A DNA stretch of 64,000 nt from an uncultured Acidobacteriota bacterium (GTDB lineage Bacteria > Acidobacteriota > Vicinamibacteria > Vicinamibacterales > 2-12-FULL-66-21). Both the position numbers and the translations under genes were made by a program. Within the stretch, counting starts at the first letter, position 1; each line of letters starts with the position of its first letter. Shown here piece after piece: positions 4,413 through 58,477 of the stretch. Under the pieces are notes generated by a model, which worked only from the letters and a program-made list of their open reading frames with translations, was not told the origin of the DNA and made no database searches. The DNA is taken from the NCBI GenBank assembly GCA_963717745.1, contig CAVQXJ010000011.1:127942-191941 (forward strand). The letters run 5' to 3'.

Positions 4413-5989
4413 TGGATGCCGCCGCGGCCTGGACCGCGCTGCTCAGACCCGAGCGCGAGCTGACCCCGGAGTTCTGGGCGTCGTTCGCCGCGGCGATGCG
4501 TGAGCGGAAGCTGACCTTCGGCGATCGCGTCCATTGCTCGGTGCTGCGGCCGTTCTTCCTGACGGCCGCCGACGAGACCCGCATCCGAGCCGCGTCCGAA
4601 ACCATCGCCGCGATCGGCGAGCGGGTCGTCGCGGCGGCGATGGAGGACCGCCGGCTGCTGCGCGCGCTGGGAGTCACCGACGCCGAAGAGCGGCTGATCG
4701 GCCTCGATCCCGGCTATGCGCGGGCCAGCACCGCGTCGCGGCTCGACGCGTTCATCCTGCCGGATTCCCTGCACTTCGCCGAGTACAACGCCGAATCGCC
4801 GGCCGGTCCGGCCTATACCCAGCGGTTGTGCGAGCTGTTCGACGGCCTCGAGCCGATGGCCGCGCTGAAGCGCGAGGTGCACGTCACCCATCACCGACCG
4901 ATCCCGCCATTGCTGCAGGCGCTACTCGAGAGCTACCGCGAGTGGGGCGGTACCGCGTCGCCGCCGACGATGGCCATCGTCGACTTCCGCGGCGTGCCGA
5001 CGTGGGCCGAGTTCGAGCTGCTGAGAGACGCGTTCGTCGAGGCCGGCGTGCCCACCGTGGTCTGCGATCCGCGCGACCTCGTGTTCGACGGCGGCGTGCT
5101 GCGGGCCGACGGACGGGCGATCGATCTCGTCTACCGGCGGGTGCTCATCAACGACATCCTGGCCCGGCCGGACGACTGCGCAGCGCTGGTCGCCGCATAC
5201 GAAAAGCGCGCCGCCTGCGTGGCGAACACTTTCCGTTGCAAGCTTCCGCACAAGAAAGCGTTCTTCGCGGTGCTCACCGATCCGGTCCACGCCGCTCTGC
5301 TGTCTCCGGGCGAGCAGGCGATCGTGCGCGCCCACGTTCCGTGGACGCGGCTGGTGGCCGACGTCCGGACCGAGCGCGGCGGCGCCCAGGCGTCGCTGCT
5401 CGAGCTCGCGCGAACCGATCGCGAGCAGCTGGTGCTCAAGCCGAACGACGAGTTCGGCGGCACCGGCGTGATGCTCGGCTGGGAGGCGCCCGGGAGCGAA
5501 TGGGAAGCGGCCCTGCAGAAGGCCCTCGCGGATCCGCCGGGCACCTGGGTGCTCCAGGAACGGATCCCGGTGCGCCGCGAAGTGTTCCCCCACTTCGACG
5601 ACGCCGGGCGCGTGACGATGCGCGACATGCTGGTCGACCTCGCCCCTTACCTGTTCCGCGGCCGGCTGGGCGGGTATCTGACCCGCCTCAGCACCACCGG
5701 GCTGGCCAACGTCACTTCCGGCGGTGGGCAGGTGCCGGCGTTCGTGGTGGGGGCTGAGTCAAATCCCAAGCTCCAAATCCCAAATCCCAACCACTCCCAA
5801 CGCCCAACTCCCAACGTCCTAACTCCCAACGCCCAACGCCCAACGCCCAACGCCCAAACGCCCAACTCCCAACTCCTCTCGCCCAGCGCCTCGGAACTTG
5901 TCGTCGTTGGGAATTGGAGGTTGGGATTTCGAGTTGGGATTTGGAGCTTGGGAGTGGTTGGAGCTTGGAGCTTGGGATTTGGGATTTGA
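4412..5989 (+). CDS. Circularly permuted ATP-grasp protein (true end probably TGA 5755-5757; as given it reads through into a palindromic repeat)
   Basis: TGATG coupling at 4410-4414; [53 protein letters not shown] motifs. Confidence 0.8.
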
Positions 5990-5992
5990 CTC
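5756..5992. repeat. Heptamer-arm palindromic element, family A, copy 1
   Basis: GAGTCAAATCCCAAGCTCC...AACCACTCCCAA left arm; TTGGGAGTGGTTGG...GGGATTTGACTC right arm; 7-nt units TCCCAAA/CTCCCAA/CGCCCAA. Confidence 0.95.
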
Positions 5993-7067: not shown

Positions 7068-7344
7068 GGTCCGGTCCGCGGTCCGGGTCCGCGGTCCGGA
7101 AGTCAGGAATCAACCACGGTGGACTGGGCGTTGACCGATCGGTTCGACGGACTGGGCGCTTTCAGCGGCAACGGGCAACTCGATGGCCTGAGAGCTTTCA
7201 CAGGAGGGCCAGGAGATCAGGAAGAAAACATAAGTTCTTTCTCCTGAACTCCTGGCCCTCCTGTAAATGCTGGCGTCGCGAATGGCCCGGATCGCGTCTC
7301 CAAGCAGCAGGGGTGATTCGCCGGACTGCGGACCGCGGACCGCG
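7068..7344. repeat. Palindromic element with GGTCCGC heptamer arms, enclosing a family B palindrome
   Basis: Left GGTCCGCGGTCCGGAAGTCAGGAATCAACC vs right GGGTGATTCGCCGGACTGCGGACCGCGGACC (imperfect inverted repeat). Confidence 0.7.
7194..7267. repeat. Family B palindrome (CAGGAG about 9-nt units), empty copy
   Basis: GCTTTCACAGGAGGGCCAGGAGATCAGGA...TCCTGAACTCCTGGCCCTCCTGTAAA. Confidence 0.9.
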
Positions 7345-11301: not shown

Positions 11302-11376
11302 GCTTCAACAGGAGGCCAGGAGTTCAGGAGACAGAATCATTTGGTTTCTCTCCTGATCTCCTGATCTCCTGTAAAG
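11302..11376. repeat. Family B palindrome, empty copy
   Basis: GCTTCAACAGGAGGCCAGGAGTTCAGGAGA...TCTCCTGATCTCCTGATCTCCTGTAAAG. Confidence 0.9.
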
Positions 11377-11785: not shown

Positions 11786-12714
11786 GGGCGCCGGGATACT
11801 GGCTGAGGGCCATCGCGACGCGGTTCTGCGGGCCGCAGACGATGGAGCGGCTGGTCGATCCGATCGTGGCCGATCTGCAGGCGGAGTACGCGGCGTTGGG
11901 TGACGGCGAACGCCTGGCGCCGGCGACGATTGCTGCTCTCGACGTATGTCGCGTTCTGGAAAGCGCTGAGCCTGCACGTCGTGCTGTCGGTCGGTCAGCC
12001 GCCGCCAGAGGGAGCCAGGCTCCGTCGCGCAATCGGCGTCTCCCTGGTCATGCTGGCGTTGTTCACCGCCGCGCTGACCATGCCGCCGTTGTTCAGCGGG
12101 CTCGGCTCGCAGGGTGGGCTGGGCGTTTCGGTCGATGCTGGTACTCCTGCTGATCCCCCAGGCGCTGCCCTTGAGTATTCCCGCCGCCATGTGCATCGGC
12201 ATTCTCTACGCGATGCGGGCCAGTCGGGTGACACGCCGCGATCTGTATGGCGTGGTGGCGATCGCTCTCGTCGCCAGCGCCGCCGTCTGGGCGGTGATCG
12301 AATGGGGCATGCCGCGGCGCGAACCAGGCGTTCCGGGAATTGGTCCACGCACAGCTCACCGGTCGCCGTGTCCACCTCGAGCCGGGCCTGAACGAGCTGG
12401 GGTTCACGGCGCTCGGCCAGCGGACCGATGCCGCCGCCATGCGGCTCTACCACCTGCGGTGGGCGCTGTCGTTCGCGCCGATCCCGTTGGGTGTCTTCGC
12501 GCTGTCAGTGGCCCACGCATCCGAGGCGCAATCGCCGCCGCCGCCCTCGCGGTGTACGGTGCCGTTCTTTTACTACAGCGCGTTGTGGGTGTCCGACTGG
12601 TACCTGACCCAGGGCGTCGCCCTCCCGATCCTGGCGGCGTGGGCGCCCAATGCCCTGTTCCTGGCCGCGGCGCTCGGGTTGATGCCGCGGTGGCGGAGAG
12701 AAGCGGCGATCTAG
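11782..12714 (+). CDS. PadR-associated membrane protein, multiply frameshifted
   Basis: GTGA coupling; N-terminal TMERLVDPIVADLQAEY; hydrophobic segments continue across at least 3 frames, ending LPILAAWAPNALF. Confidence 0.55.
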
Positions 12715-12772
12715 CTGGTTTCCACGGCTTTCACCCCACCAAAAATCGGCACATCGGGCAGGTTGCGAGGCT

Positions 12773-13374
12773 GCTTTAACAGGAGGTCAGGAGGACCGGA
12801 ATTCATTGTTCTCGGGGCACTGGCGACGGTCGGCTGTTTATAGAGGTCGGGATGCACCAGGTCTTCAGGCCAGCTCTCAGACTTCAGTGTTGAAGTTCAT
12901 GAGCAGGCCGACCGGAAAGCCCGTCAGCTTCAGATACGTGATCACCTGCGCCATGAAGACGGGATGCAGACGCTCCACGGCTTTGATCTCGACGATGAGC
13001 CGATGCTCGACGGCGAGATCCACCTTGAGAGAGCGCCAACCGTCTGATCTCGTACTGAATGGCTACTCGCGCTCTCGCTCAACAGCAGTCCCGCCGCTCG
13101 CAATTCAATCGTCATACAGTCCTGATAGATCGACTCGAGCAAGCCTGGCCCAAGCGCCCGGTGGACTTCGATGCCGCAGGCGATCACCCGTTCCTTCAGC
13201 GCTCCAGGTCGTCCGCCAGCACAACCCGCATGCCGCGACGAAAGAAGCAACTACGGCCACGCGAATTGCTTCGGAAACCGCGCGGGCCGGCCGGGCGACG
13301 GCATTTTGACCCAGGGCCGCCGCGTCCTCCGGGAGACAGAAGAACTTTCCGTCCTCCTGACCTCCTGTTAAAGC
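12773..13374. mobile_element. Family B palindromic element carrying a GxxExxY gene
   Basis: Perfect 24-bp terminal inverted repeats GCTTTAACAGGAGGTCAGGAGGAC (12773-12796) and GTCCTCCTGACCTCCTGTTAAAGC (13351-13374). Confidence 0.7.
12810..13231 (-). CDS. GxxExxY protein (PD-(D/E)XK-like nuclease fold), about 5-6 frameshifts; 3' end approximate
   Basis: Reconstructed across frames: ERVIACGIEVHRALGPGLLESIYQDCMTIEL...LKVDLAVEHRLIVEIKAVERLHPVFMAQVITYLKLTGFPVGLLMNFN. Confidence 0.85.
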
Positions 13375-13457
13375 TCACTGCCCTCGCTGAGAAGCTTGTG
13401 TGCCGCGATTGAGAGGTTAACCAGCGCCGCTAAGAGTGGGGTGACCGACGCGCGCAC

Positions 13458-14879
13458 TCATCTGACCCGGGGCAGGAACCCAGGCTTCTTGAGGAAGATT
13501 GGCGCGTTCGGCGGGGTTTCGGGCTTCACGTTGTAGCGCCAGGCCTCGATCAGCCAGAGGCCGCGTTGGCGCATCAGCACCAGCGTGCACAAGCCCTCGG
13601 CCGATGGCGCCGGTTCTCCCTTCGCGTCGGTCATGCCGCGGAGCTCCCATTTGGCGTCCGCGATCGCCACGTCGGGGGTGATGCAGCGAATGGTGCCGAA
13701 GGAGAGGTAGTGCCTCGAATGCCGGTACTCCGGCTGCCTGAAAAGGTAGGCGCGGTTTTCCCCGATGATCTTCGCGTTGCTCTCGACCAGGCCATCCGGG
13801 TGCGCCATGTCGCCCCCCGCGGACCAGAACGAGACGATGCGATCGACGTCCTGGTTGGCCCACGCGAGCTGGAACGCGGGGCCGAGCGCCCGGATGGTCC
13901 GATCGTCGCCGGGCTGGCACTCCCCGTTGGTGGGGCGCGAGGGGGACTGGGGCGGCCGGACGCTCGCCGGCGCCGGAGTTGCCGCAGGGGAACCGGCGAA
14001 CGGCAGCGACGCCTTTCGCAGACTCTCGATGTCCGTGCGGATCGCGCCCACCAGCCCTTCGACGACGACGCGCCCTTTGTCCCGGGTCGCGAGCGAGGGA
14101 TCGCCCCACGCGCCGGTCGGCGAATACGTTCCGCGTCCCCCCTCTCGTCGCGTCAATTGAAATGGCGTGCTCATCGCCGGGTTGTAATCTGGCTGCGCGC
14201 TCGGCATGTTCACGGCCGACGGGTCGATGTAGAGCATCATGGACGTTTCGATCTCGTCGGCGTGGTTGCCGCCCGGCTGCCGCTGCATGCCTCGCGTTTC
14301 GGCCAGGTGGGCGCGCCAGTCGGTGTAGTGCAGCAGGATCCCGTCCGACGCCAGCAGCTTCGCGGCGGCGGCCAGCGCCTGAGCGGAGGAAACGCCGGTG
14401 TTCAGCACGTAGAACCGTCGTGGCCCGCTGCGCGCGAGGCTGCGCACGACGTCCGCCGTCAGGTCGCGCGCGGTGGTCAACGACAGCGAGGTGGAGCCGG
14501 GGTACTCGGCGAATCCTGGAAAGTAGTGATACGGGAGCGGCGGTGCCGCGACGACGTCGGCGAGCTGGAGGAGGCGGCTGGTGAAGTAGTCGGCCAGCGT
14601 GCGATCGTTCCCGAGCTTGAGGTGCAGGCCGTGTTGCAGCGCGGCGGCGCCGAGGGGCAGGACCATCACGGTTTCCGGCGTGAGGCGCCGTTCGGCCACG
14701 GGCCACGTCAGCTCGGCCAGGCTGACGCCGGTGACCACCGGCTCTGCCGGCTTCGCCGGCGGCGCCACGGCCGGCGGCCGTGCCGGCGCCTGGCCGCTGA
14801 GGCCGGTGAGCGGACCGAGCAGAACCACGAAGAGAAACGAACGCCGAAACGTGGTGGCCAGGACTGAAGCGAGCCGCAT
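13458..14879 (-). CDS. Secreted creatininase-family protein fused to a C-terminal SnoaL/NTF2-like domain
   Basis: Signal peptide and Pro/Ala linker; LAELTWP, QHGLHLKLGND, GNHADEIETS, GAWGDPSLATRDKG; then AWANQDVDRIVSFW...ITPDVAIAD...WLIEAWR. Confidence 0.8.
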   Translation of the reverse strand: MRLASVLATTFRRSFLFVVLLGPLTGLSGQAPARPPAVAPPAKPAEPVVTGVSLAELTWPVAERRLTPETVMVLPLGAAALQHGLHLKLGNDRTLADYFTSRLLQLADVVAAPPLPYHYFPGFAEYPGSTSLSLTTARDLTADVVRSLARSGPRRFYVLNTGVSSAQALAAAAKLLASDGILLHYTDWRAHLAETRGMQRQPGGNHADEIETSMMLYIDPSAVNMPSAQPDYNPAMSTPFQLTRREGGRGTYSPTGAWGDPSLATRDKGRVVVEGLVGAIRTDIESLRKASLPFAGSPAATPAPASVRPPQSPSRPTNGECQPGDDRTIRALGPAFQLAWANQDVDRIVSFWSAGGDMAHPDGLVESNAKIIGENRAYLFRQPEYRHSRHYLSFGTIRCITPDVAIADAKWELRGMTDAKGEPAPSAEGLCTLVLMRQRGLWLIEAWRYNVKPETPPNAPIFLKKPGFLPRVR

Positions 14880-18535: not shown

Positions 18536-18771
18536 TCAAATCCCAAGATCCAAGCTCCAAATCCCAACCACTCCCAAGCTCCAACTCCCAAATCTAATTC
18601 CCAACTCCCAAGTCCCAACTCCCAAATCCCAATCCCAAATCCCAAATCCCAAATCCCCATGTGTCGTAGCTGCTCGGCGATCTTGCGCTGGGATTTGGGA
18701 GTTGGGAATTAGATTTGGGAGTTGGGATTTGGGAGTGGTTGGGATTTGGGATTTGGAGCTTGGGATTTGTC
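18535..18771. repeat. Family A palindrome, copy 2
   Basis: GTCAAATCCCAAG...AACCACTCCCAA / TTGGGAGTGGTTGGG...GGGATTTGTC; overlaps the TAG stop. Confidence 0.95.
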
Positions 18772-20621: not shown

Positions 20622-22184
20622 AGATCCTGGCCGGGATCACGGCGATCGTGATGGTGCTCGGCGCGCCGCAGCCGGCGCGCTACGACCTCGCCATCGTCGG
20701 CGGTCAGGTGGTGGATGGCTCCGGCCAGCCGGCGCGGCGGGTGGACGTGGCGATCGCTCAGGGGCGGATCGCGGCGATGGGCACGATCGCCCGGGGCGAG
20801 GCGCGAGAGGTGATCGACGCGGCCGGGCTGATCGTGGCGCCGGGCTTCATCGACGTGCACACGCACGCCGACGATCTGGCCGATCACCCGCTCGCGGACA
20901 ACTTCGTGCGGATGGGGGTGACCACGATCATCGCGGGCAACTGCGGCTCGTCGGCGCTGGATGTCGGCGAAGCGCTGGCGAACATCAGCCGGGCCGGCGC
21001 TTCGGTGAACTTCGCGACGCTGATCGGCCACAACACGGTGCGTGCCGAGGTGATGGGGACGGCCAGTCGATTGCCGTCGATCCCGGAGCTGACCCGCATG
21101 CGCTCGCTGGTGTGGCGCGCGATGGCAGACGGTGCGGTCGGCTTTTCCACCGGCCTCCAGTACGTGCCTGGGACCTACGCGAAGACGCCGGAGATCATCG
21201 ACCTGGCGCGCGTCGCGGGTAATGCCGGCGGGGTCTACGCCACCCACATGCGGAACGAAGGGACCGCGCTCGAGGCCGCGGTGGAGGAATCGATTCGCGT
21301 CGGCTCGACTATCGGCGGGCGGGTGCAGATCTCGCATCTGAAAGTCGACAGCCCGAGCCGGTGGGGGGCCAGCGCCCAGGCGCTGGCGATGATCGACGCC
21401 GCCCGCAGCCGCGGCGTCGACGTGATGGCCGACCAGTACGCCTACACCGCGGCGAGCTCGACGCTCGGCATCCGTTTTCCTTCGTGGGCCCTCGAAGGAG
21501 GACAGACCGCGATGGCGGCGCGCCTGGAGGATCCGCAGCAATGGGCGCGCATCAAGCGCGAGATGGCCGGCCTTCTGGCGGAGCGCGGGCTCAAGGACCT
21601 GTCGTTCGCGGTGGTCGCCTCACACGCCGCCAACCCGTCGCTGAACGGTCTCAACATGGCGCAGGTCGCGGCGAAGCTGAAGGGGTCCGACTCCGCCGAC
21701 GCGCAATTCGAGGCCGCTCGCGATCTGATGCTCGCCAACGGCGCGTCGATGGTCTATCACTTCATGTCGGACGACGATGTGAACCGCATCATGCGGCATC
21801 CGTTCGTGGCGATCGCCTCGGACGCGAGCGTGCTGGTCGCGGGCCAGGGCGCCCCTCATCCACGCGGCTACGGCAACAACGCGCGCGTGCTGGGCGAGTA
21901 CGTCCGCACCCGTCACGTGATCGCCCTGGAGGACGCGGTGCGCAAGATGACGTCGCTCCCCGCGGGGCATTTCAGGCTCGACCGCCGCGGGTTGTTGAAG
22001 GAGGGCTACGCCGCCGACGTGATCGTGTTCGACGCGGCGCGGGTGAAAGACGCGGCGACGTTCGAGAAACCGCACGCCTATGCGGCTGGCATTCCCTACG
22101 TCGCTGGTCAACGGCGTGGTGGTGGTGAAGAACGGCGAGCACACGAAGGCGAGGCCGGGAGTCGCTATTACACGGGGGAAATAG
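20618..22184 (+). CDS. N-acyl-D-amino-acid deacylase family amidohydrolase (frameshift near 22102)
   Basis: [40 protein letters not shown]; corrected tail [19 protein letters not shown] ends at TAG 22182-22184. Confidence 0.88.
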
Positions 22185-22386
22185 CGTCAAATCCCAAGCT
22201 CCAAGCTCCAAATCCCAACCACTCCCAAGCTCCAAAATCCCAATTCGAAATCCCAAGTTCCAAATTCCAAATTCCCAAGCTCCAAATCCCACGTCCTGCA
22301 GCGACTCGGCGATCTTGAGCTGGGGATTTGGGACTTTGGGATTTGGGAGTGGTTGGGATTTGGAGCTTGGAGCTTGGGATTTGACG
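22185..22386. repeat. Family A palindrome, copy 3
   Basis: Perfect 44-bp arms CGTCAAATCCCAAGCTCCAAGCTCCAAATCCCAACCACTCCCAA; fills the gap between two convergent stop codons exactly. Confidence 0.95.
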
Positions 22387-22893
22387 TTATTCGTCGAGCG
22401 CCAGATAGACCACCACCGGCGCGACAATCACCCAAATCCCCGCGGCGATGAGTGGCAGCGTGGTGTAGGCGGCCGCGCCGAGCAGCCAGGAGAAGCTGAC
22501 GTCGCGGGGCAGCGCGAGCCATTCCGGGCCGCCCATGGTGGCAATCGCTCCACGGATACCGGCCGAAGCGGCGGGCGCCAGCGCGATCGCGCCGAAGGCG
22601 GCGCAGATGGTCGCGATGACCTGGACGATCAGCAGCGGGCGGACCGCCAGCCGTGCGGCCTCTTCGCGGGCGCGAATCTGCGCCCGCCACCAGACGGCGC
22701 TCGCTGTCGGCACCACGGCCTCGGCCCGGGCGCAGTCGCGGTCCTCGAAGAATGCCGCGGCAATCTCGGCGACGTCGGCGCACACCGCGCATCCGGCGAC
22801 GTGGCTGCGCAGCGACTCGTCGGCCCGATCCGGCCACCGGCGCGCCGTGACCGCGTCCAGCAGCTCTTGCTCGAATGGACAATGGAGCTTCAC
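22387..22893 (-). CDS. Putative ZAS-type anti-sigma membrane protein
   Basis: HVAGCAVC (HxxxCxxC), C-terminal TMs, overlaps the ECF sigma stop. Confidence 0.75.
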   Translation of the reverse strand: MKLHCPFEQELLDAVTARRWPDRADESLRSHVAGCAVCADVAEIAAAFFEDRDCARAEAVVPTASAVWWRAQIRAREEAARLAVRPLLIVQVIATICAAFGAIALAPAASAGIRGAIATMGGPEWLALPRDVSFSWLLGAAAYTTLPLIAAGIWVIVAPVVVYLALDE

Positions 22894-30463: not shown

Positions 30464-30652
30464 ATCAAATCCCAAGCTCCAAATCCCAAATCCCAACCAC
30501 TCCCAAATCCCAACTTCCAAATCTCACCGTCAACTTCCAACCGCCAACTCCCGAGCGAAATCGAAACTCCTGTTTGGGATCTGGGGTTCGGGGTGTTGGG
30601 ATTTGGGAGTTGGGAGTGGTTGGGATTTGGAGCTTGGGATTTGGGAGTTGAT
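30464..30652. repeat. Family A palindrome, copy 4
   Basis: ATCAAATCCCAAGCTCC...AACCACTCCCAA / TTGGGAGTGGTTGGG...GAGTTGAT, immediately after TAG. Confidence 0.95.
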
Positions 30653-34527: not shown

Positions 34528-35859
34528 GTGAAGAGATTCGCCCTGGCGTTGGTGAGTGCCGTCGCGTCTGTCGCCGTCACGCAGGCGCAGTGGCCGCAGT
34601 GGCGTGGACCCGACCGCACCGGCCTCGTGCCTGCCGCTGCGGTGCCGGCGGCGTGGCCCGACAAGCCGACCGTGAAGTGGACGCAGCCGGTCGGCGAAGG
34701 CTATTCGTCGCCGGTCGTCGCCGACCAGCGGGTGTTCGTGCACAGCCGCACCGATCCGGACGAGGTCGTCAGCGCGTTCGAGCTCGACTCCGGCGAACCG
34801 ATCTGGTCGGCCACCTACGGGTCGTCGTTCACCAAGAACAAGTACGCCGCCGCGATGGCGAAGGGGCCGTTCTCGACCCCGCTGGTGGCGAACGGCCGCC
34901 TGTTCACACTCGGGACCAGCGCCGTGCTGTCGTCGTTCGATGCCGCGACCGGCGCCGTGAAGTGGCGCAAGGACTGGTCGAAGGAGATCGACACGTCCGG
35001 GCTGTTCACCGGCACCGCGATGTCGCCGATCATCGACAGCGGCCTGCTCATCGTGCACGTCGGCGATGATGGTGCCGGCGCGATGCGCGCGCTCGATCCG
35101 GCGACCGGCGACGAGAAGTGGACGCTCCCTGGACATGGACCAGGCTACGCCTCACCGATCGTGACGACGTTTGGCGGCGTCCGCCAGCTGGTGACGATGA
35201 CCGACAAGGCGGTGGTGGGGATCGAGGTGCAGTCCGGCAAGGCGCTTTGGACGATTCCGTTCCCTGACCTGTGGAACGAAAACATCGTCACCCCGGTGGT
35301 GGCCGGCGACATCCTGATCGTGTCCGGCGCGCGCAAGGGGACCTATGGCTATCGACTGGAAAAGACCGGCGCCGGGTTCGCGGCGGCCGAGGTCTGGCAC
35401 AACACCGATCTGCCCATGCATATGAGCTCTCCGGTCGTCGACGGCACGGTCGTCTACGGCTTCGGCAGCAGGCGCAAAGGCCAGTTGTTCTGCCTCGACG
35501 CGAGGACCGGGGTCGCGAAATGGACGACCGAGGGACGGGGTGGCACGAACGCATCGATCCAGATGGCGGGTCCAAACCTCGTGGTGCTGACCACTGACGG
35601 CGAGCTGCTGGTGGTGCGGCGGTCGCCGGACAAATACGAGGAGCTGAAGCGCTACAAAGTGGCGGAGTCGGAGACCTGGGCGCAGCCGGTGCTGGTGCCG
35701 GGAGGAATGCTGATCCGGGATGCGGGGGGGATCGCGTTGTGGTCTCTGTCAAATCCCAAATCCCAAGCTCCAAATCCCAACCACGCCCAAATCCCAAGCT
35801 CCAAGGAATCCCAAATCCCGAATCCCAAATTCCATTCCCAAATCCCAACGCCCCATTGA
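34528..35859 (+). CDS. PQQ-like (BamB-type) beta-propeller protein; last about 36 aa derive from a palindrome
   Basis: Signal peptide, WPQWRGP, GYSSPVV, ALD..TG..KW repeats, TWAQPV; tail [12 protein letters not shown] is translated repeat. Confidence 0.85.
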   Translation: MKRFALALVSAVASVAVTQAQWPQWRGPDRTGLVPAAAVPAAWPDKPTVKWTQPVGEGYSSPVVADQRVFVHSRTDPDEVVSAFELDSGEPIWSATYGSSFTKNKYAAAMAKGPFSTPLVANGRLFTLGTSAVLSSFDAATGAVKWRKDWSKEIDTSGLFTGTAMSPIIDSGLLIVHVGDDGAGAMRALDPATGDEKWTLPGHGPGYASPIVTTFGGVRQLVTMTDKAVVGIEVQSGKALWTIPFPDLWNENIVTPVVAGDILIVSGARKGTYGYRLEKTGAGFAAAEVWHNTDLPMHMSSPVVDGTVVYGFGSRRKGQLFCLDARTGVAKWTTEGRGGTNASIQMAGPNLVVLTTDGELLVVRRSPDKYEELKRYKVAESETWAQPVLVPGGMLIRDAGGIALWSLSNPKSQAPNPNHAQIPSSKESQIPNPKFHSQIPTPH

Positions 35860-35935
35860 GCCCGGTTTGGAGGGTGATTGGGATTTGGGCGTTGGGAGTG
35901 GTTGGGATTTGGAGCTTGGGATTTGGGATTTGACA
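35747..35935. repeat. Family A palindrome, copy 5
   Basis: Perfect arms of about 38 bp, TGTCAAATCCCAAATCCCAAGCTCCAAATCCCAACCAC. Confidence 0.95.
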
Positions 35936-38813: not shown

Positions 38814-39489
38814 ATGCTGACCGTCGATCGAGTCACGAAGCGCTATCGCACTCCCCGGGGGGAGCTCTCCATCCTGACCGACATCTCGCTGTCGCTCGAG
38901 CGCGGCGCCGCGATCGCGATCATGGGACCCTCCGGCAGCGGCAAGAGCACGCTGCTCTATATCCTGGGCGCGCTCGAGGCACCGTCGTCTGGCACGGTCA
39001 CCCTTGACGGCAAGGACCCGTACCGGATGGGCGAGCGGGAACAGGCGGCGTTTCGCAACCAGCAGATCGGGTTCGTCTTCCAGGATCACTCGCTGCTGCC
39101 GCAATGCTCGGTGCTCGAAAACGTGCTCGCGCCGACGTTCGTGGCGCCGCCGGCCGACGCCGGACCGCGCCGCCGCCACCCGGGCGCAGGCGCTGCTGAC
39201 CCAGGTCGGACTCGCCGACCGGCTCGCCCATCGTCCCGCCGAGCTGTCGGGCGGCGAAAAACAACGGGCCGCGCTCGCGCGCGCGCTCATTCGCAATCCG
39301 ACACTGCTGCTCTGCGACGAACCGACCGGCAACCTCGATCGTGCCGCGGCCGACACGGTGGCCGATCTGCTGCTCGAGCTGCATGCGGCCCGCAACACGA
39401 TCCTGGTGGTGGTGACCCATAGCGCGCCGCTGGCCGCCCGTTTTCCGGTGCGTTATGAGATGAGCGGCGGGAGTCTGGTGAAGGCGTAG
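38814..39489 (+). CDS. ABC transporter ATP-binding protein, LolD/MacB-type (frameshift near 39165)
   Basis: GPSGSGKST, GFVFQ, LSGGEKQR, DEPTGNLD, VTH. Confidence 0.92.
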
Positions 39490-39707
39490 TCAAATCCCAA
39501 GCTCCAAGCTCCAAATCCCAACCACTCCCAAATCCCAAATCCCAAATAACTCCCAAATGCCAACGCCCAATTGATCTCGAGTGCAGGGTTTTGGAAGATG
39601 GGTCGGATTTGGCGGTTGGGAGTGATTGGGATTTGGGGTTGGGAGTCGATTTGGGAGTTGGGAGTTGGGAGTGGTTGGGATTTGGAGCTTGGGATTTGGG
39701 ATTTGAC
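39489..39707. repeat. Family A palindrome, copy 6, inside the ABC operon
   Basis: GTCAAATCCCAAGCTCC... / ...GGGATTTGAC; overlaps TAG and ends 2 nt before the next ATG. Confidence 0.95.
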
Positions 39708-43104: not shown

Positions 43105-43190
43105 GATCCACCTTCAAGACGTTGGAGGTAGTGGGAGGTGCCGGATCCCCGCCTTCGAGACGTTGGAGGTGGTGGGAGGTACCGGATCTC
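43104..43190. repeat. Tandem direct repeat of about 40 bp, two copies
   Basis: GGATCC..CCTTC(A/G)AGACGTTGGAGGT(A/G)GTGGGAGGT(G/A)CC twice, running into the family C arm. Confidence 0.8.
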
Positions 43191-43297
43191 AAAAACGGAG
43201 CAACGGAGAGAACGAAGTAAAACGGAGAAGACTATTTCAGGCAAACCCTAATTGTCTTTTTCGTTATTCTCCGTTGCTCCGTTTTTGAGATCCGGTA
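43180..43297. repeat. Family C palindrome (AACGGAGC units), copy 1
   Basis: Perfect 30-bp arms TACCGGATCTCAAAAACGGAGCAACGGAGA. Confidence 0.92.
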
Positions 43298-43336
43298 GCT
43301 CCAACGACCTCGGCTGCTTCTAATAAGGACGACGAG

Positions 43337-43789
43337 ATGAAAACAATGTTGACAGCACGGGACATCAAGGTGGCGCTGGCGGCCGCGGTAATCACGCTCA
43401 CCGGCGCCGGGATGATGCGGGCACAGACTCCGGTGATGGGCTCACGCATCTTCGAATGGGACGCGCTGAAGGTCGAGAAAACGAAGGTCGGCGCCCGGCG
43501 CGACGTCGTCCGGCTGCCGACCGCCACGCTCGACGAGCTCGAGATGCACATCACCACGCTCGATGCCGGCCAGACCTCGCATGCGCCCCATCAGCATCCG
43601 GCCGAGGAGCTGATCATCATCAAGGAGGGCACGCTCGAGTCGTTCGTGAACGGCGAGTACAAGCGCGTCGGTCCAGGCTCGATCGTCTTCCAGGCGTCCA
43701 ATCAGCCGCACGCGATCCGGAACGTCGGTACCACGCCGGCGACCTATCACGTGGTGCAGTGGCAATCGCCAGGCATGCTCAAGAAATGA
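43337..43789 (+). CDS. Secreted cupin domain protein
   Basis: Signal peptide; HAPHQHPAEELIIIKEG...GPGS...PHAIRN; SD AAGGA. Confidence 0.88.
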   Translation: MKTMLTARDIKVALAAAVITLTGAGMMRAQTPVMGSRIFEWDALKVEKTKVGARRDVVRLPTATLDELEMHITTLDAGQTSHAPHQHPAEELIIIKEGTLESFVNGEYKRVGPGSIVFQASNQPHAIRNVGTTPATYHVVQWQSPGMLKK

Positions 43790-43958
43790 AAATCCCAAGA
43801 TCCAAATCCCAAGCTCCAACCACTCCCAAAGTCCAACGCCCAAGGGTGAAATCCCAAATCCCAAATTCCCAATCCCGCGTGAATGCCACTGTTGGCGGAG
43901 GGTTTGGGATTTGGAAGTTGGGAGTGGTTGGAGCTTGGGATTTGGATCTTGGGATTTT
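43789..43958. repeat. Family A palindrome, copy 7
   Basis: Perfect arms of about 41 bp, AAAATCCCAAGATCCAAATCCCAAGCTCCAACCACTCCCAA. Confidence 0.95.
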
Positions 43959-49641: not shown

Positions 49642-50003
49642 ACCGGATTTCAAAAACGGAGCAACGGAGCCAACGAAGAGAACGGAAAAGACAAATTGGT
49701 TTTTGGTTTTAGTCCGGTGTTCCGTTCTTGAATTGGGTACTGCTGCGGATCACGGCCCGTGACCCAGTGTCCCGAATCCGAAGTTCGCCACCAAATTCCC
49801 GGGCGGGGCATCCCGCCTCGCGGCGTTGCTCCTCCCTCACATATTCCCGATATGCTCGGTCGTCGCGCCTTGCGATCCGGGCGCCGCGCCCGGGACTTTG
49901 GCGCCGAACTTCGGACTCGGGACACTAGCGAAAAAGAACGGAAAACAAATTAGTCTTTTCCGTTTCCTCCGTTTGCTCCGTTGCTCCGTTTTTGAGATCC
50001 GGT
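49642..50003. repeat. Family C palindrome, copy 2, interrupted by a MITE
   Basis: ACCGGATTTCAAAAACGGAGCAACGGAGC / GCTCCGTTGCTCCGTTTTTGAGATCCGGT. Confidence 0.88.
49766..49928. mobile_element. MITE with IS630-like termini
   Basis: Imperfect TIRs of about 40 bp, AGTGTCCCGA(A/G)TCCGAAGTTCG; CTAG at the right end; ends translate RTSDSGH, recalling IS630 transposase C-termini. Confidence 0.6.
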
Positions 50004-58146: not shown

Positions 58147-58477
58147 GTCACGCTGCATTCCTTGTCCACGGCGCCTGCGGCGCGCAGCCCGCCTGCGGCC
58201 GGTCACGACGACACGACGACACGACGACAACGACGCTTTTGACACGAGCAACCGGCTCACGATTATTGCCGCGGGGTCGTTCGAGTTGCCCGAAATATCA
58301 GCGGCTCGGTGAGTGGCAGCCCGCCGGCCTACGCCGGCGCGGAAGCGCGGCCCTGCCAGCGGGTAGGAGTCCATCGAAGAGACTGAGCTCTACGTCGTTG
58401 TCGTCGTGTCGTCGTCTCGTCGTGCGGCCGCAAGGCCGCCAGCGCCGCAGGCGCCGTGGGCACGATGGCAGCGTGAC
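58147..58477. repeat. Long palindromic element with octamer (CACGACGA) inner arms
   Basis: GTCACGCTGC..CCACGGCGCCTGCGGCGC..ACGACACGACGACAACGACG mirrored at 58394-58477. Confidence 0.85.

Follow-up and report, generated by a model that had tools for sequence, protein, structure and literature searches.

What is a small nuclease-like gene doing at the centre of a long palindrome, and how is it related to the gene-less palindromes with the same arms that lie nearby? The question is raised by a 602-bp unit bounded by palindrome arms at positions 12773-13374 of a 64,000-nt stretch of DNA from an uncultured bacterium of the Vicinamibacterales (Acidobacteriota). We refer to the whole stretch as the window; it corresponds to G000:C11:127942-191941, where G000 is the host assembly (7.97 Mb, 33 contigs, 88.7% complete). 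An earlier note on this DNA had placed a GxxExxY gene inside perfect 24-bp inverted repeats, had pointed to gene-less copies of the same arms in its vicinity, and had suggested that a small PD-(D/E)XK protein mobilises, generates or processes such palindromes. The first two of these statements are confirmed here. We further find that the gene is associated with arrays of short repeat units far more often than chance would allow. The association is old and is shared between phyla, in which the sequence of the unit is conserved, and it points to an undescribed mobile or repeat-maintaining element.

A repeat search of the window gives the arms as 29 nt in length, 93% complementary and 544 nt apart, and an exact-seed scan finds a perfect 24-nt core, GCTTTAACAGGAGGTCAGGAGGAC, at C11:140714-140737 and 141292-141315 (window 12773-12796 and 13351-13374). 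The only open reading frame (ORF) between the arms is GxxExxY, and it is read from the minus strand in two fragments. The ORF at 12942-13250 covers profile positions 2-44 (TIGR04256, 42.2 bits; PF13366, E 3.5e-10, 40.7 bits) and that at 12877-13023 covers positions 62-108 (TIGR04256, 59.6 bits; PF13366, E 6.2e-16, 59.2 bits). Both exceed the curated cut-offs of 35 bits for TIGR04256 and 22 bits for PF13366, which makes the gene a member of the GxxExxY (TIGR04256) or PDDEXK_3 (PF13366) family in the form of a pseudogene, and the motifs GLLESIY and KVDL..VEIK are readable in its translation. It had been described as heavily frameshifted; the gene is indeed broken, but alignment of its frames with intact relatives shows two frameshifts, one after ...ELRAAGLL and the other in a CTCTCTC run before KVDLAVE, and a manual reading of the frames and the alignment reveals no genuine premature stop. 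Because neither frameshift lies in a homopolymer, the break is probably genuine and not an error of assembly.

The element is flanked by two protein-coding ORFs. Given this position, and as none of the Rfam families, those of rRNA among them, attains its gathering score within the window, we rejected a 23S rRNA intervening sequence as its identity. A Rho-independent terminator was also rejected, the stems being at least 25-30 bp long with A/T-rich apices and the T tail being absent, and a terminator scan of 12600-13500 returned one terminator-like site, which is unrelated to the element. Small shares (0.04-0.10) were found in six DNA-type sequencing runs, with no RNA run listed. Four of the six gave scattered short contigs and one contig that joins 12801 to 13346 through 13 other letters, with only 23 letters on its shorter side; we interpret this contig not as an allele of the window locus but as a gene-less hairpin from another place that belongs to the same subfamily.

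The host assembly contains three GxxExxY loci only, that of the window, C15:451794-452144, which is intact and encodes 139-140 residues, and C16:30821-31163, which is split over two frames and therefore frameshifted. We assigned to each locus an inverted-repeat score for the arms that bracket it, with a main threshold of 16. All three loci lie between inverted arrays with scores of 24-28, and each has a distinct unit (CAGGAG, AACGGAG and CACGACGA respectively), whereas among 300 random 350-bp intervals of the same assembly one reached a score of 16 and four a score of 14. The conjecture that the AACGGAGC and CACGACGA elements could belong to paralogs proves correct, as the other two loci are bracketed by exactly those units. 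For each of the three unit families just one pair of arms in the assembly encloses a GxxExxY gene, the remaining long pairs of the unit census not having been screened for genes, and the relation between filled and empty copies is thus real and family-specific.

The residues of the D..ExK motif, D72, E82 and K84, are invariant in all 22 aligned relatives, as are G27, G29, H93, Q96, N113 and R125. An AlphaFold2 model of the intact paralog (pLDDT 93.5, pTM 0.86) has PD-(D/E)XK nucleases as all of its top structural neighbours, with VIA giving BpuSI (Z 7.6), 3ijm, 4ic1 and BglII (Z 7.3 each) and Hjc (Z 6.2), and with Cas4 SSO0001 (4ic1) as the best Foldseek match at E 4.1e-3; because these Z scores are below 8, the predicted structure indicates the shared fold alone and not a particular PD-(D/E)XK subfamily. 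By sequence, solved structures gave no match at E<=1, and PADLOC returned only a weak Cas4 match (E 0.01) to one of three proteins. PDDEXK_3 is listed as of unknown function in PMC3424549.

The arrangement extends well beyond the host. A GxxExxY gene is present in 24 of 41 genomes of the same order, and 15 of the 29 loci in these relatives reach a score of 16; inspection by eye of the flanks of 26 loci revealed unit arrays, on one side or both, in nearly all of them. An unpublished genome, G002, contributes one of the 24 genomes and one of the 29 loci (L023, which has no bracketing repeat and a right flank of merely 69 nt), as well as three of the arm matches and one of the 32 genomes with the second gene family described below; none of our conclusions depends on it. 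A cross-phylum set was formed from the best 80 of 585 confirmed stretches in a conserved-peptide scan with one genome per species, and it covers Bacteroidota, Planctomycetota, Chloroflexota, Verrucomicrobiota, Pseudomonadota, Acidobacteriota, others and two archaeal records, with 146 pseudo-genes positioned within the same loci as controls. A score of at least 16 is seen at 35 of these 80 loci against 1/146 controls, and one of at least 20 at 22 against none, so that the expected occurrence of flanking repeats on GxxExxY genes across genomes is borne out. Exact 5-mer arrays upstream with their complement downstream occur at 30/80 loci and 2/146 controls, and the arms frequently adjoin the ORF at a distance of 0-60 nt.

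In this set the majority of arms consist of a single degenerate unit, C[AG]CN[AG]AG (CACAGAG, CGCAGAG, CACGGAG, CACGAAG, CGCAAAG and others), a motif defined post hoc from the same data. At least two sense copies upstream together with at least two antisense copies downstream are found at 48/80 loci and 0/68 controls, and at least two copies on at least one side at 68/80 loci and 6/68 controls; seven of the 80 loci show the opposite polarity on both sides. A TT[CA]AC[CG]-type tip stands before the first unit upstream at 10 loci and downstream at 20, and 7/80 loci have it on both sides; among 69 controls the corresponding numbers are one, none and none. The sequence of the unit itself, beyond pairing, is conserved across phyla, which argues for recognition by the co-inherited protein.

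Two cases in named species illustrate the element in its gene neighbourhood. The GxxExxY gene of Bacteroides finegoldii (NZ_OY725952.1) has radA on one side and the gene of an FAD-dependent protein on the other, and the arms, TTCACCACAGAGGACGCAGAGGACACGGAG and an imperfect complement ending GGTGAA, fill both spacers. In Sphingomonas parapaucimobilis (NZ_CP155749.1) an element of ~437 bp (L199 1473-1909), bounded by TTCACGCGAAGG... and ...CTTCGCGTGAA (the left start is also given as TTCACGCGAAG), stands between fabD and fabG with its right terminus ~20 nt from the fabG start; as the fabD-fabG gap is 32 nt in S. paeninsulae (NZ_CP032828.1), the element is an insertion of ~437 bp, and being co-oriented with the fab operon it must be co-transcribed with it. 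The annotated GxxExxY ORF of S. parapaucimobilis runs through the downstream arm and stops 3 nt before fabG. Five Bacteroidota genomes have 3-8 GxxExxY matches each, with 3-61 unit-pair matches against 0 for a reversed-pattern control. We also observe, in a metagenome-assembled genome of Mucilaginibacter (G041, e.g. L211-L218), about 30 gene-less repeats of ~200 nt each, in which the tips are abutted 'inside-out' at the centre (CTCTGTG units...GGTAAAAA/TTAACC...CACAGAG units) and the outer ends carry a separate inverted repeat, TATCAAAAG/CTTTTGATA; these look like a composite or joined-ends form.

The unit type also follows the phylogeny of the protein in part. On a tree of 25 proteins of the relatives (leaving out L030, a near-copy of L014, the truncated or broken L029, L027, L028 and L023, and two G000 pseudogenes) the unit labels require 13 changes against a shuffled mean of 17.3, and none of 200 shuffles is as low. 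Groups recovered on it are that of the CAGGAG-flanked proteins from three genera (SH-aLRT 89), a GCGGAT pair (99) and a CCAAG/GCAAG pair (99). The window pseudogene is nearest to the CAGGAG group (57.5% with L015, 63.8% with L013 over 47 residues, and 53.7% with L031).

A long-range inverted-repeat scan of the host assembly produced 224 candidates, some of which enclose small ORFs, and seven small ORFs from long-range pairs were typed by Pfam. Four of them belong to 23S_rRNA_IVP (PF05635), a family of four-helix-bundle proteins (IVP below). The assembly has nine IVP loci, of which seven are bracketed at a score of at least 16 and eight at a score of at least 13, each with its own unit family, and the core 12-mers of these units occur 12-409 times in the assembly. 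When GxxExxY and IVP loci are counted together, 10/12 lie in a palindrome family of their own at the higher threshold and 11/12 at the lower. Among the 41 genomes of the relatives set IVP genes are present in 32, and 18 of 28 IVP loci (L144 of G002 and L156 of G000 being left out) score at least 16, as do 17 of the 22 with full flanks; the units are very diverse. In PMC11270868 the IVP proteins are described as functionally uncharacterised and present in rRNA insertions, and PMC3936711 mentions IVP genes scattered through cas loci. Many GxxExxY and IVP genes of draft genomes lie no more than a few hundred bases from a contig end (G001:C7:887, G008:C112:167, G022:C186:167, G021:C56:35), as is expected if the flanking arrays break assemblies. 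In G000 the units upstream of GxxExxY genes are purine-rich and resemble Shine-Dalgarno (SD) sequences (CAGGAG, ACGGAGG, CACAGAGG), their downstream complement resembling the anti-SD CCUCC, while the IVP-associated units are not SD-like and in some cases look like repeats of telomere type (ATTAGGG, TTTGGGA).

A de novo k-mer survey adds at least nine further tandem-unit palindrome families in the host assembly, including TCCCAAGCTCCA (187 loci), GGGAGAAGG (148 loci) and AATCCCT (52 loci); for at least one abundant family, of CGGACC type with 68 loci, no gene-bearing copy was found in the assembly (88.7% complete). The gene-bearing copy of the TCCCAA(G/A)CTCCAA family (187 loci) carries an IVP gene at C13:872682-872969, and seven large palindromes of this family lie in the window, with arms of 49-81 nt that are 60-117 nt apart.

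The gene-less palindromes form large dispersed populations. Within the window, ACAGGAGGNCAGGAG (<=2 mismatches) occurs eight times against 0.39 expected, and 0/100 shuffles reach this number. The two gene-less CAGGAG hairpins are highly stable as RNA from either strand, at -70 to -76 and -51 to -52 kcal/mol, with folding z of -6.0 to -10.2 and none of 200 shuffles equally stable. A census of the host assembly by simple unit patterns gives 341 arms, 136 paired hairpins and 69 solo arms for CAGGAG, with inner spacings mostly of 13-48 nt; 156 arms, 53 pairs and 50 solo arms for AACGGAG; and 132 arms, 36 pairs with structured interiors of 120-320 nt and 60 solo arms for CACGACGA. Whole gene-less elements have a median best-partner identity of 83% (AACGGAG) and 87% (CAGGAG), and this moderate identity indicates that the copies are not a recent burst. 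The core of the arm is letter-perfect in most copies (~96/163 for a 25-mer, counting zero-mismatch rows by hand), and such exact cores in elements only 83-87% identical look constrained; the outermost part of the arm is the best conserved.

The interiors of the 36 paired CACGACGA-family loci (e.g. C1:10230-10535, C2:109928-110234) are directional, with conserved blocks and nested variable hairpins, and are ~70-76% alike between copies; the window copy has no Rfam match. Such an interior may represent a structured RNA, or else several palindromes nested into a composite. Three long pairs of AACGGAG or CAGGAG arms (C13:1139441-1140824, C24:391916-392494, C31:132880-133832) enclose 0.5-1.3 kb with no GxxExxY or IVP match in these interiors, and may each be two neighbouring hairpins or carry other cargo.

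Table 1. Features of the window and IVP loci of the host assembly (window positions unless a G000 contig is named)
Feature	Position	Strand	Remarks
Left arm, gene-bearing palindrome	12773..12801	.	TTTAAC then CAGGAG units; 24 nt perfect, 29 nt at 93%
Right arm	13346..13374	.	reverse complement of left arm: CTCCTG units then GTTAAAGC
GxxExxY / PDDEXK_3 pseudogene	12877..13250	-	two frameshifts; stop 12877-12879
Pseudogene, N-terminal part	~13074-13199	-	GPGLLESIY
Pseudogene, middle part	~13024-13073	-	other reading frame
Pseudogene, C-terminal part	12880-13023	-	D..ExK: KVDLAVEHRLIVEIK
Gene-less hairpin, CAGGAG main subfamily (GGGCCAGGAGATCAGGA)	7193..7271	.	between convergent ORFs; arms 7193-7222 / 7242-7271, 30 nt, 90%
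Gene-less hairpin, CAGGAG family	11302..11376	.	between divergent ORFs
Gene-less palindrome, AACGGAG family	43166..43311	.	gene-bearing copy G000:C15:451693-452265, outside window
AACGGAG-family palindrome	49642..50003	.	238-nt non-coding interior
CACGACGA-family element	58204..58424	.	gene-bearing copy G000:C16:30772-31294, outside window
TCCCAA(G/A)CTCCAA palindromes	5756-5992, 18537-18769, 22180-22391, 30466-30643, 35747-35935, 39489-39707, 43789-43958		window
IVP loci in unit arrays (1)	G000:C3:277097-277638; C15:228105-228815; C15:358058-358524; C29:202764-203371		
IVP loci in unit arrays (2)	G000:C27:152244-152974; C9:111937-112427; C13:872438-873128; C13:790080-790735		
Units of the eight bracketed IVP loci			AATGCCAA, AATCCCT, ACAGAAG, GGGAGAA, GGTTCGCG, CCAGTT, TCCCAA, GATCCC-type

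Comparison of related genomes shows that gene and repeats of the AACGGAG family behave differently over time. The copy that bears the gene has the same neighbours in the same order in G000:C15 and G004:C9, over a 2985-nt alignment (78.7% at the nucleotide level, with proteins 76% identical), which points to vertical inheritance of this copy. The region G000:C2:81500-91500 holds three gene-less AACGGAG copies and is colinear with G001:C19; the gaps at the three sites are 142, 10 and 89 nt in G001 compared with 305, 165 and 280 nt in G000, and at both of the sites that were aligned the element is missing from G001. The window locus is not invariant either, as G001 retains both flanking genes and lacks the CAGGAG element and the GxxExxY gene, in place of which it has a small number of CGCGAACC-type units; in G004, G005 and G006 different genes adjoin the right-hand gene. 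In a Chryseobacterium set (22 genomes searched, 21 matched) the flanks of locus L122 are mostly non-adjacent and no clean filled/empty pair was found, and G055 has near the right flank a different 300-aa ORF and a small CACAGAG/CTCTGTG hairpin.

Across the 41 genomes the arm counts track the cognate gene imperfectly. AACGGAG-type arms number 163 in G000, 44 in G004, 5 in G023, 3 each in G002 and G006 and 0 in the other 36, and the cognate gene has an intact orthologue in G000 and G004 and an internal stop in G023. CAGGAG-type arms number 246 in G000 and 36, rather degenerate, in G001, with single matches in three other genomes. The correlation with gene-less copy counts that had been put forward for testing is seen for AACGGAG (G000, G004), and the CAGGAG arms of G001 and of G000, with its broken gene, are exceptions. 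In small samples of 20-kb pieces from related genomes, 400 kb of G000 yielded 17 tandem-unit hairpins, and samples of 100 kb each yielded 5 for G013, 4 for G023, 1 for G035 (five IVP genes, no GxxExxY) and 0 for G005 (two IVP genes). None was seen in the 320 kb taken from G034 and G039, both of which lack the two gene families. A stricter tandem-hairpin detector flagged 1/19 in G000 and was dropped.

We propose that the window locus may be the 'master' copy, gene-bearing but now decayed, of a palindromic repeat system specific to its unit family. In this system a GxxExxY PD-(D/E)XK gene of ~125-140 residues occupies the centre of a long palindrome, and the arms are inverted arrays of 7-9-nt tandem units that start at a terminus resembling TT(C/A)AC. 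Most simply, the protein would read the units of its arrays, recognising them in trans as putative binding sites, like the subterminal repeats of transposons. It would then cut DNA at or near the arrays, and the cutting would move, copy or maintain its own element and the gene-less derivatives, in the manner of REPIN/RAYT systems, which consist of doublets of REP (repetitive extragenic palindromic) sequences and the REP-associated tyrosine transposases (RAYT; PMC3116915, PMC5581495, 10.1101/2021.07.10.451892). In the Vicinamibacterales lineage the gene-less derivatives would have grown to tens or hundreds per family while the gene copy stayed single and vertically inherited, and with the nuclease gene of the window dead through its two frameshifts the CAGGAG family would now be non-autonomous or decaying. 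That the nuclease acts on its own unit arrays in a REPIN/RAYT-like system is the reading we favour, and we do so tentatively; binding and cleavage, action at the level of DNA and any mobilisation by the GxxExxY protein are what we infer from it.

A number of observations weigh against this proposal. The gravest is that IVP, an unrelated four-helix bundle that is not a nuclease and for which no catalysis is known, occurs in the same layout, so that the architecture needs no PD-(D/E)XK enzyme; while the generality of the architecture stands, the role of the nuclease as agent, as suggested in the earlier note, is weakened by the seven of nine IVP loci. This leaves two possibilities, namely that each of these unrelated small proteins works on arrays of its own, or that the mobilising enzyme is neither of them. 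The cargo protein may read the arrays while another activity does the chemistry. Nor do we know of any transposition chemistry built on a lone PD-(D/E)XK nuclease. Bracketing falls below 16 at 14 of the 29 loci of the relatives and at 45 of the 80 cross-phylum loci, and two of the three GxxExxY genes of the host are frameshifted. The idea that arm families might occur independently of the gene turns out to be partly true, since G001 has 36 CAGGAG arms and no CAGGAG-type gene was found in its assembly (84% complete), G000 retains 246 such arms despite its broken gene, and the arms of the pseudogene match a subfamily found at ~7 other places and not the main CAGGAG subfamily. Copies are also not recent, with best-partner identity of at least 95% in 0/39 AACGGAG and 6/112 CAGGAG elements, and filled and empty sites are only ~70-78% alike at the nucleotide level, too diverged for base-exact junctions or for a target-site duplication to be defined. 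The CACGACGA interiors gave no blastn match to the GxxExxY gene at E<=0.01 and are therefore not simple deletion derivatives of it. In the 880-kb S. parapaucimobilis record the arm pattern matches only the element's own two arms, which indicates that gene-less copies are a lineage-specific development rather than a constant companion. Finally, covariation of arm and protein holds for the CAGGAG, GCGGAT and CCAAG/GCAAG groups but not for the CGGAG and CAGAG labels, which are unclustered on a poorly resolved tree (183/500 and 139/500 shuffles are as low), and the labels had been set by eye, k-mer labelling being noisy.

These difficulties bring other explanations into view, not all of which exclude the proposal above. 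One of them places the function of the arms in RNA: as in an intervening sequence (IVS), the arms would pair in the transcript to form a long stem with the small ORF in its loop, RNase III or another host enzyme would process or insulate the stem so that a selfish gene is tolerated in operons and spacers without polarity, and translation would be gated by sequestration of the purine-rich units beside the start codon. Gene-less hairpins would then be relics or terminators and stabilisers useful to the host, and the protein would serve the cassette otherwise. This is consistent with the hairpins being very stable as RNA from either strand, with arms that are often 0-60 nt from the ORF, with elements that are co-oriented and tightly wedged in operons (fabD-GxxExxY-fabG; radA-GxxExxY-FAD protein), with the absence of any sigma-70-like promoter found within the window element, and with a sister architecture that carries a protein family first found in 23S rRNA intervening sequences, going by the name and description of PF05635. 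We nevertheless consider it unlikely as the main explanation, because unit sequence and TT(C/A)AC terminus are conserved across phyla beyond pairing, because the outermost part of the arm is the best conserved, as in transposon ends, and because gene-less copies occupy more than 100 separate intergenic sites, one of them between divergent ORFs (11302-11376); one gene per unit family is also left unexplained. In a test for a strand-specific RNA stem, concordance of G·T versus A·C mismatches within elements shows no excess (P 0.20 for 115 CAGGAG and P 0.27 for 42 AACGGAG elements), which is not evidence against an RNA role.

The genes could instead be passengers, the palindromes being made by an unlinked enzyme or by hairpin replication or repair, with small ORFs landing or persisting at their apices, for instance through homing-type double-strand-break repair. 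Homing endonucleases of the PD-(D/E)XK type are known, sites of this kind are occupied by two protein families that are unrelated, and there are arm families without a matching gene (in G001, in the main CAGGAG subfamily of G000, and in the CGGACC-type family with its 68 loci). However, random landing predicts several genes in a large family and none in small ones, and what we find is 10/12 GxxExxY and IVP loci in palindromes at a score of at least 16, each in a different family and one per family. Moreover, unit type follows protein clades across genera and phyla, solitary gene-bearing elements occur where there are no gene-less palindromes to land in, and the 320 kb sampled from genomes lacking both gene families contain no tandem-unit hairpins. 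We consider a passenger role unlikely. The nuclease-on-its-arrays, RNA-level and passenger explanations are not mutually exclusive. A coincidence or assembly artefact, in which a pseudogene happened to be flanked by two unconnected copies of a common repeat, draws some plausibility from the crowding of the host genome with such repeats (~4 per 100 kb) and from the long-range scan, in which separate hairpin pairs do flank ordinary genes. It is refuted for practical purposes by 3/3 loci against 1/300 in the background and 35/80 against 1/146 controls, and by arms that stand in matching register and adjoin the ORF.

A wider and more doubtful claim is that GxxExxY, and in parallel IVP, are the sole proteins of unrecognised, widespread minimal elements whose inverted unit-array ends are read by the encoded protein, which insert into spacers, operons and possibly rRNA helices, and which seed REPIN-like populations in some lineages. 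Both are large families of small proteins (TIGR04256/PF13366 and PF05635) with no assigned function, found in most bacterial phyla and some archaea. Typically the genes of both are carried by an element that can be defined by its terminus, its inverted 7-9-nt unit arrays and its single ORF, and some genomes hold a separate population of gene-less palindromes for each gene. The 'unknown function' thereby becomes testable as binding or cutting by the protein of its own unit arrays. The layout explains the presence of small genes inside conserved operons and cas loci, and it gives a clue to how rRNA intervening sequences arose, since insertion into rRNA helices, if true, would account for those that bear ORFs. 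If the wider claim is correct, it would provide a function for two large families of unknown role, a mechanism of mobility or maintenance outside the known transposase chemistries, and a second, non-HUH example of a long-lived intragenomic replicator of the REPIN/RAYT type. On a practical level, unit arrays break assemblies and can mislead ORF and CRISPR callers. Our search found no published description of these flanks; curator comments on TIGR04256 and TIGR02436 and paper supplements, which may bear on novelty, lay outside it.

Several known systems share features with the window element. With Cas4 and small restriction-type nucleases it appears to share the PD-(D/E)XK fold, as modelled, and the D..ExK motif, but without a sequence-level structure match and without a cas or restriction-modification context. 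PD-(D/E)XK homing endonuclease genes are likewise small selfish nuclease ORFs between conserved genes; to our knowledge, however, homing genes have neither bracketing unit arrays nor a dispersed family of gene-less repeats, and a cognate empty target site was not identified here. Intervening sequences of 23S rRNA with an IVP ORF also have inverted flanks that form a long stem, with a small ORF or nothing in the loop, and the IVP genes of G000 and its relatives carry tandem-unit arms too, but the elements described here are intergenic and the cargo in the window is GxxExxY rather than IVP.

The likeness to insertion sequences (IS) with their miniature inverted-repeat transposable elements (MITE), and to transposons with terminal inverted repeats generally, lies in the terminal inverted repeats with a conserved tip (TT(C/A)AC...GT(G/T)AA), in short motifs repeated inside the ends, in the coexistence of gene-bearing and short gene-less copies, and in insertion into an otherwise conserved operon spacer. 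The element differs in having no DDE, serine, tyrosine or HUH transposase, its ORF encoding only ~125 aa, and in having a gene-bearing copy that is single and syntenic rather than multi-copy. With REPIN/RAYT systems it shares a single-copy gene flanked by its own inverted repeats, tens to hundreds of dispersed gene-less palindromic doublets, multiple independent gene/repeat families per genome, a gene that is inherited vertically while the repeats turn over (here for the AACGGAG family only), and repeats that are scarce or absent where the gene is absent. In place of the single hairpin of REP with its GTAG/CGTC tag, however, there are arrays of 7-9-nt tandem units, and a single long palindrome has the gene at its apex. 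Instead of an HUH/Y1 transposase the gene encodes a PD-(D/E)XK nuclease, or a four-helix bundle in the sister elements, and for this reason we regard the window system as an analogue rather than a member of REPIN/RAYT.

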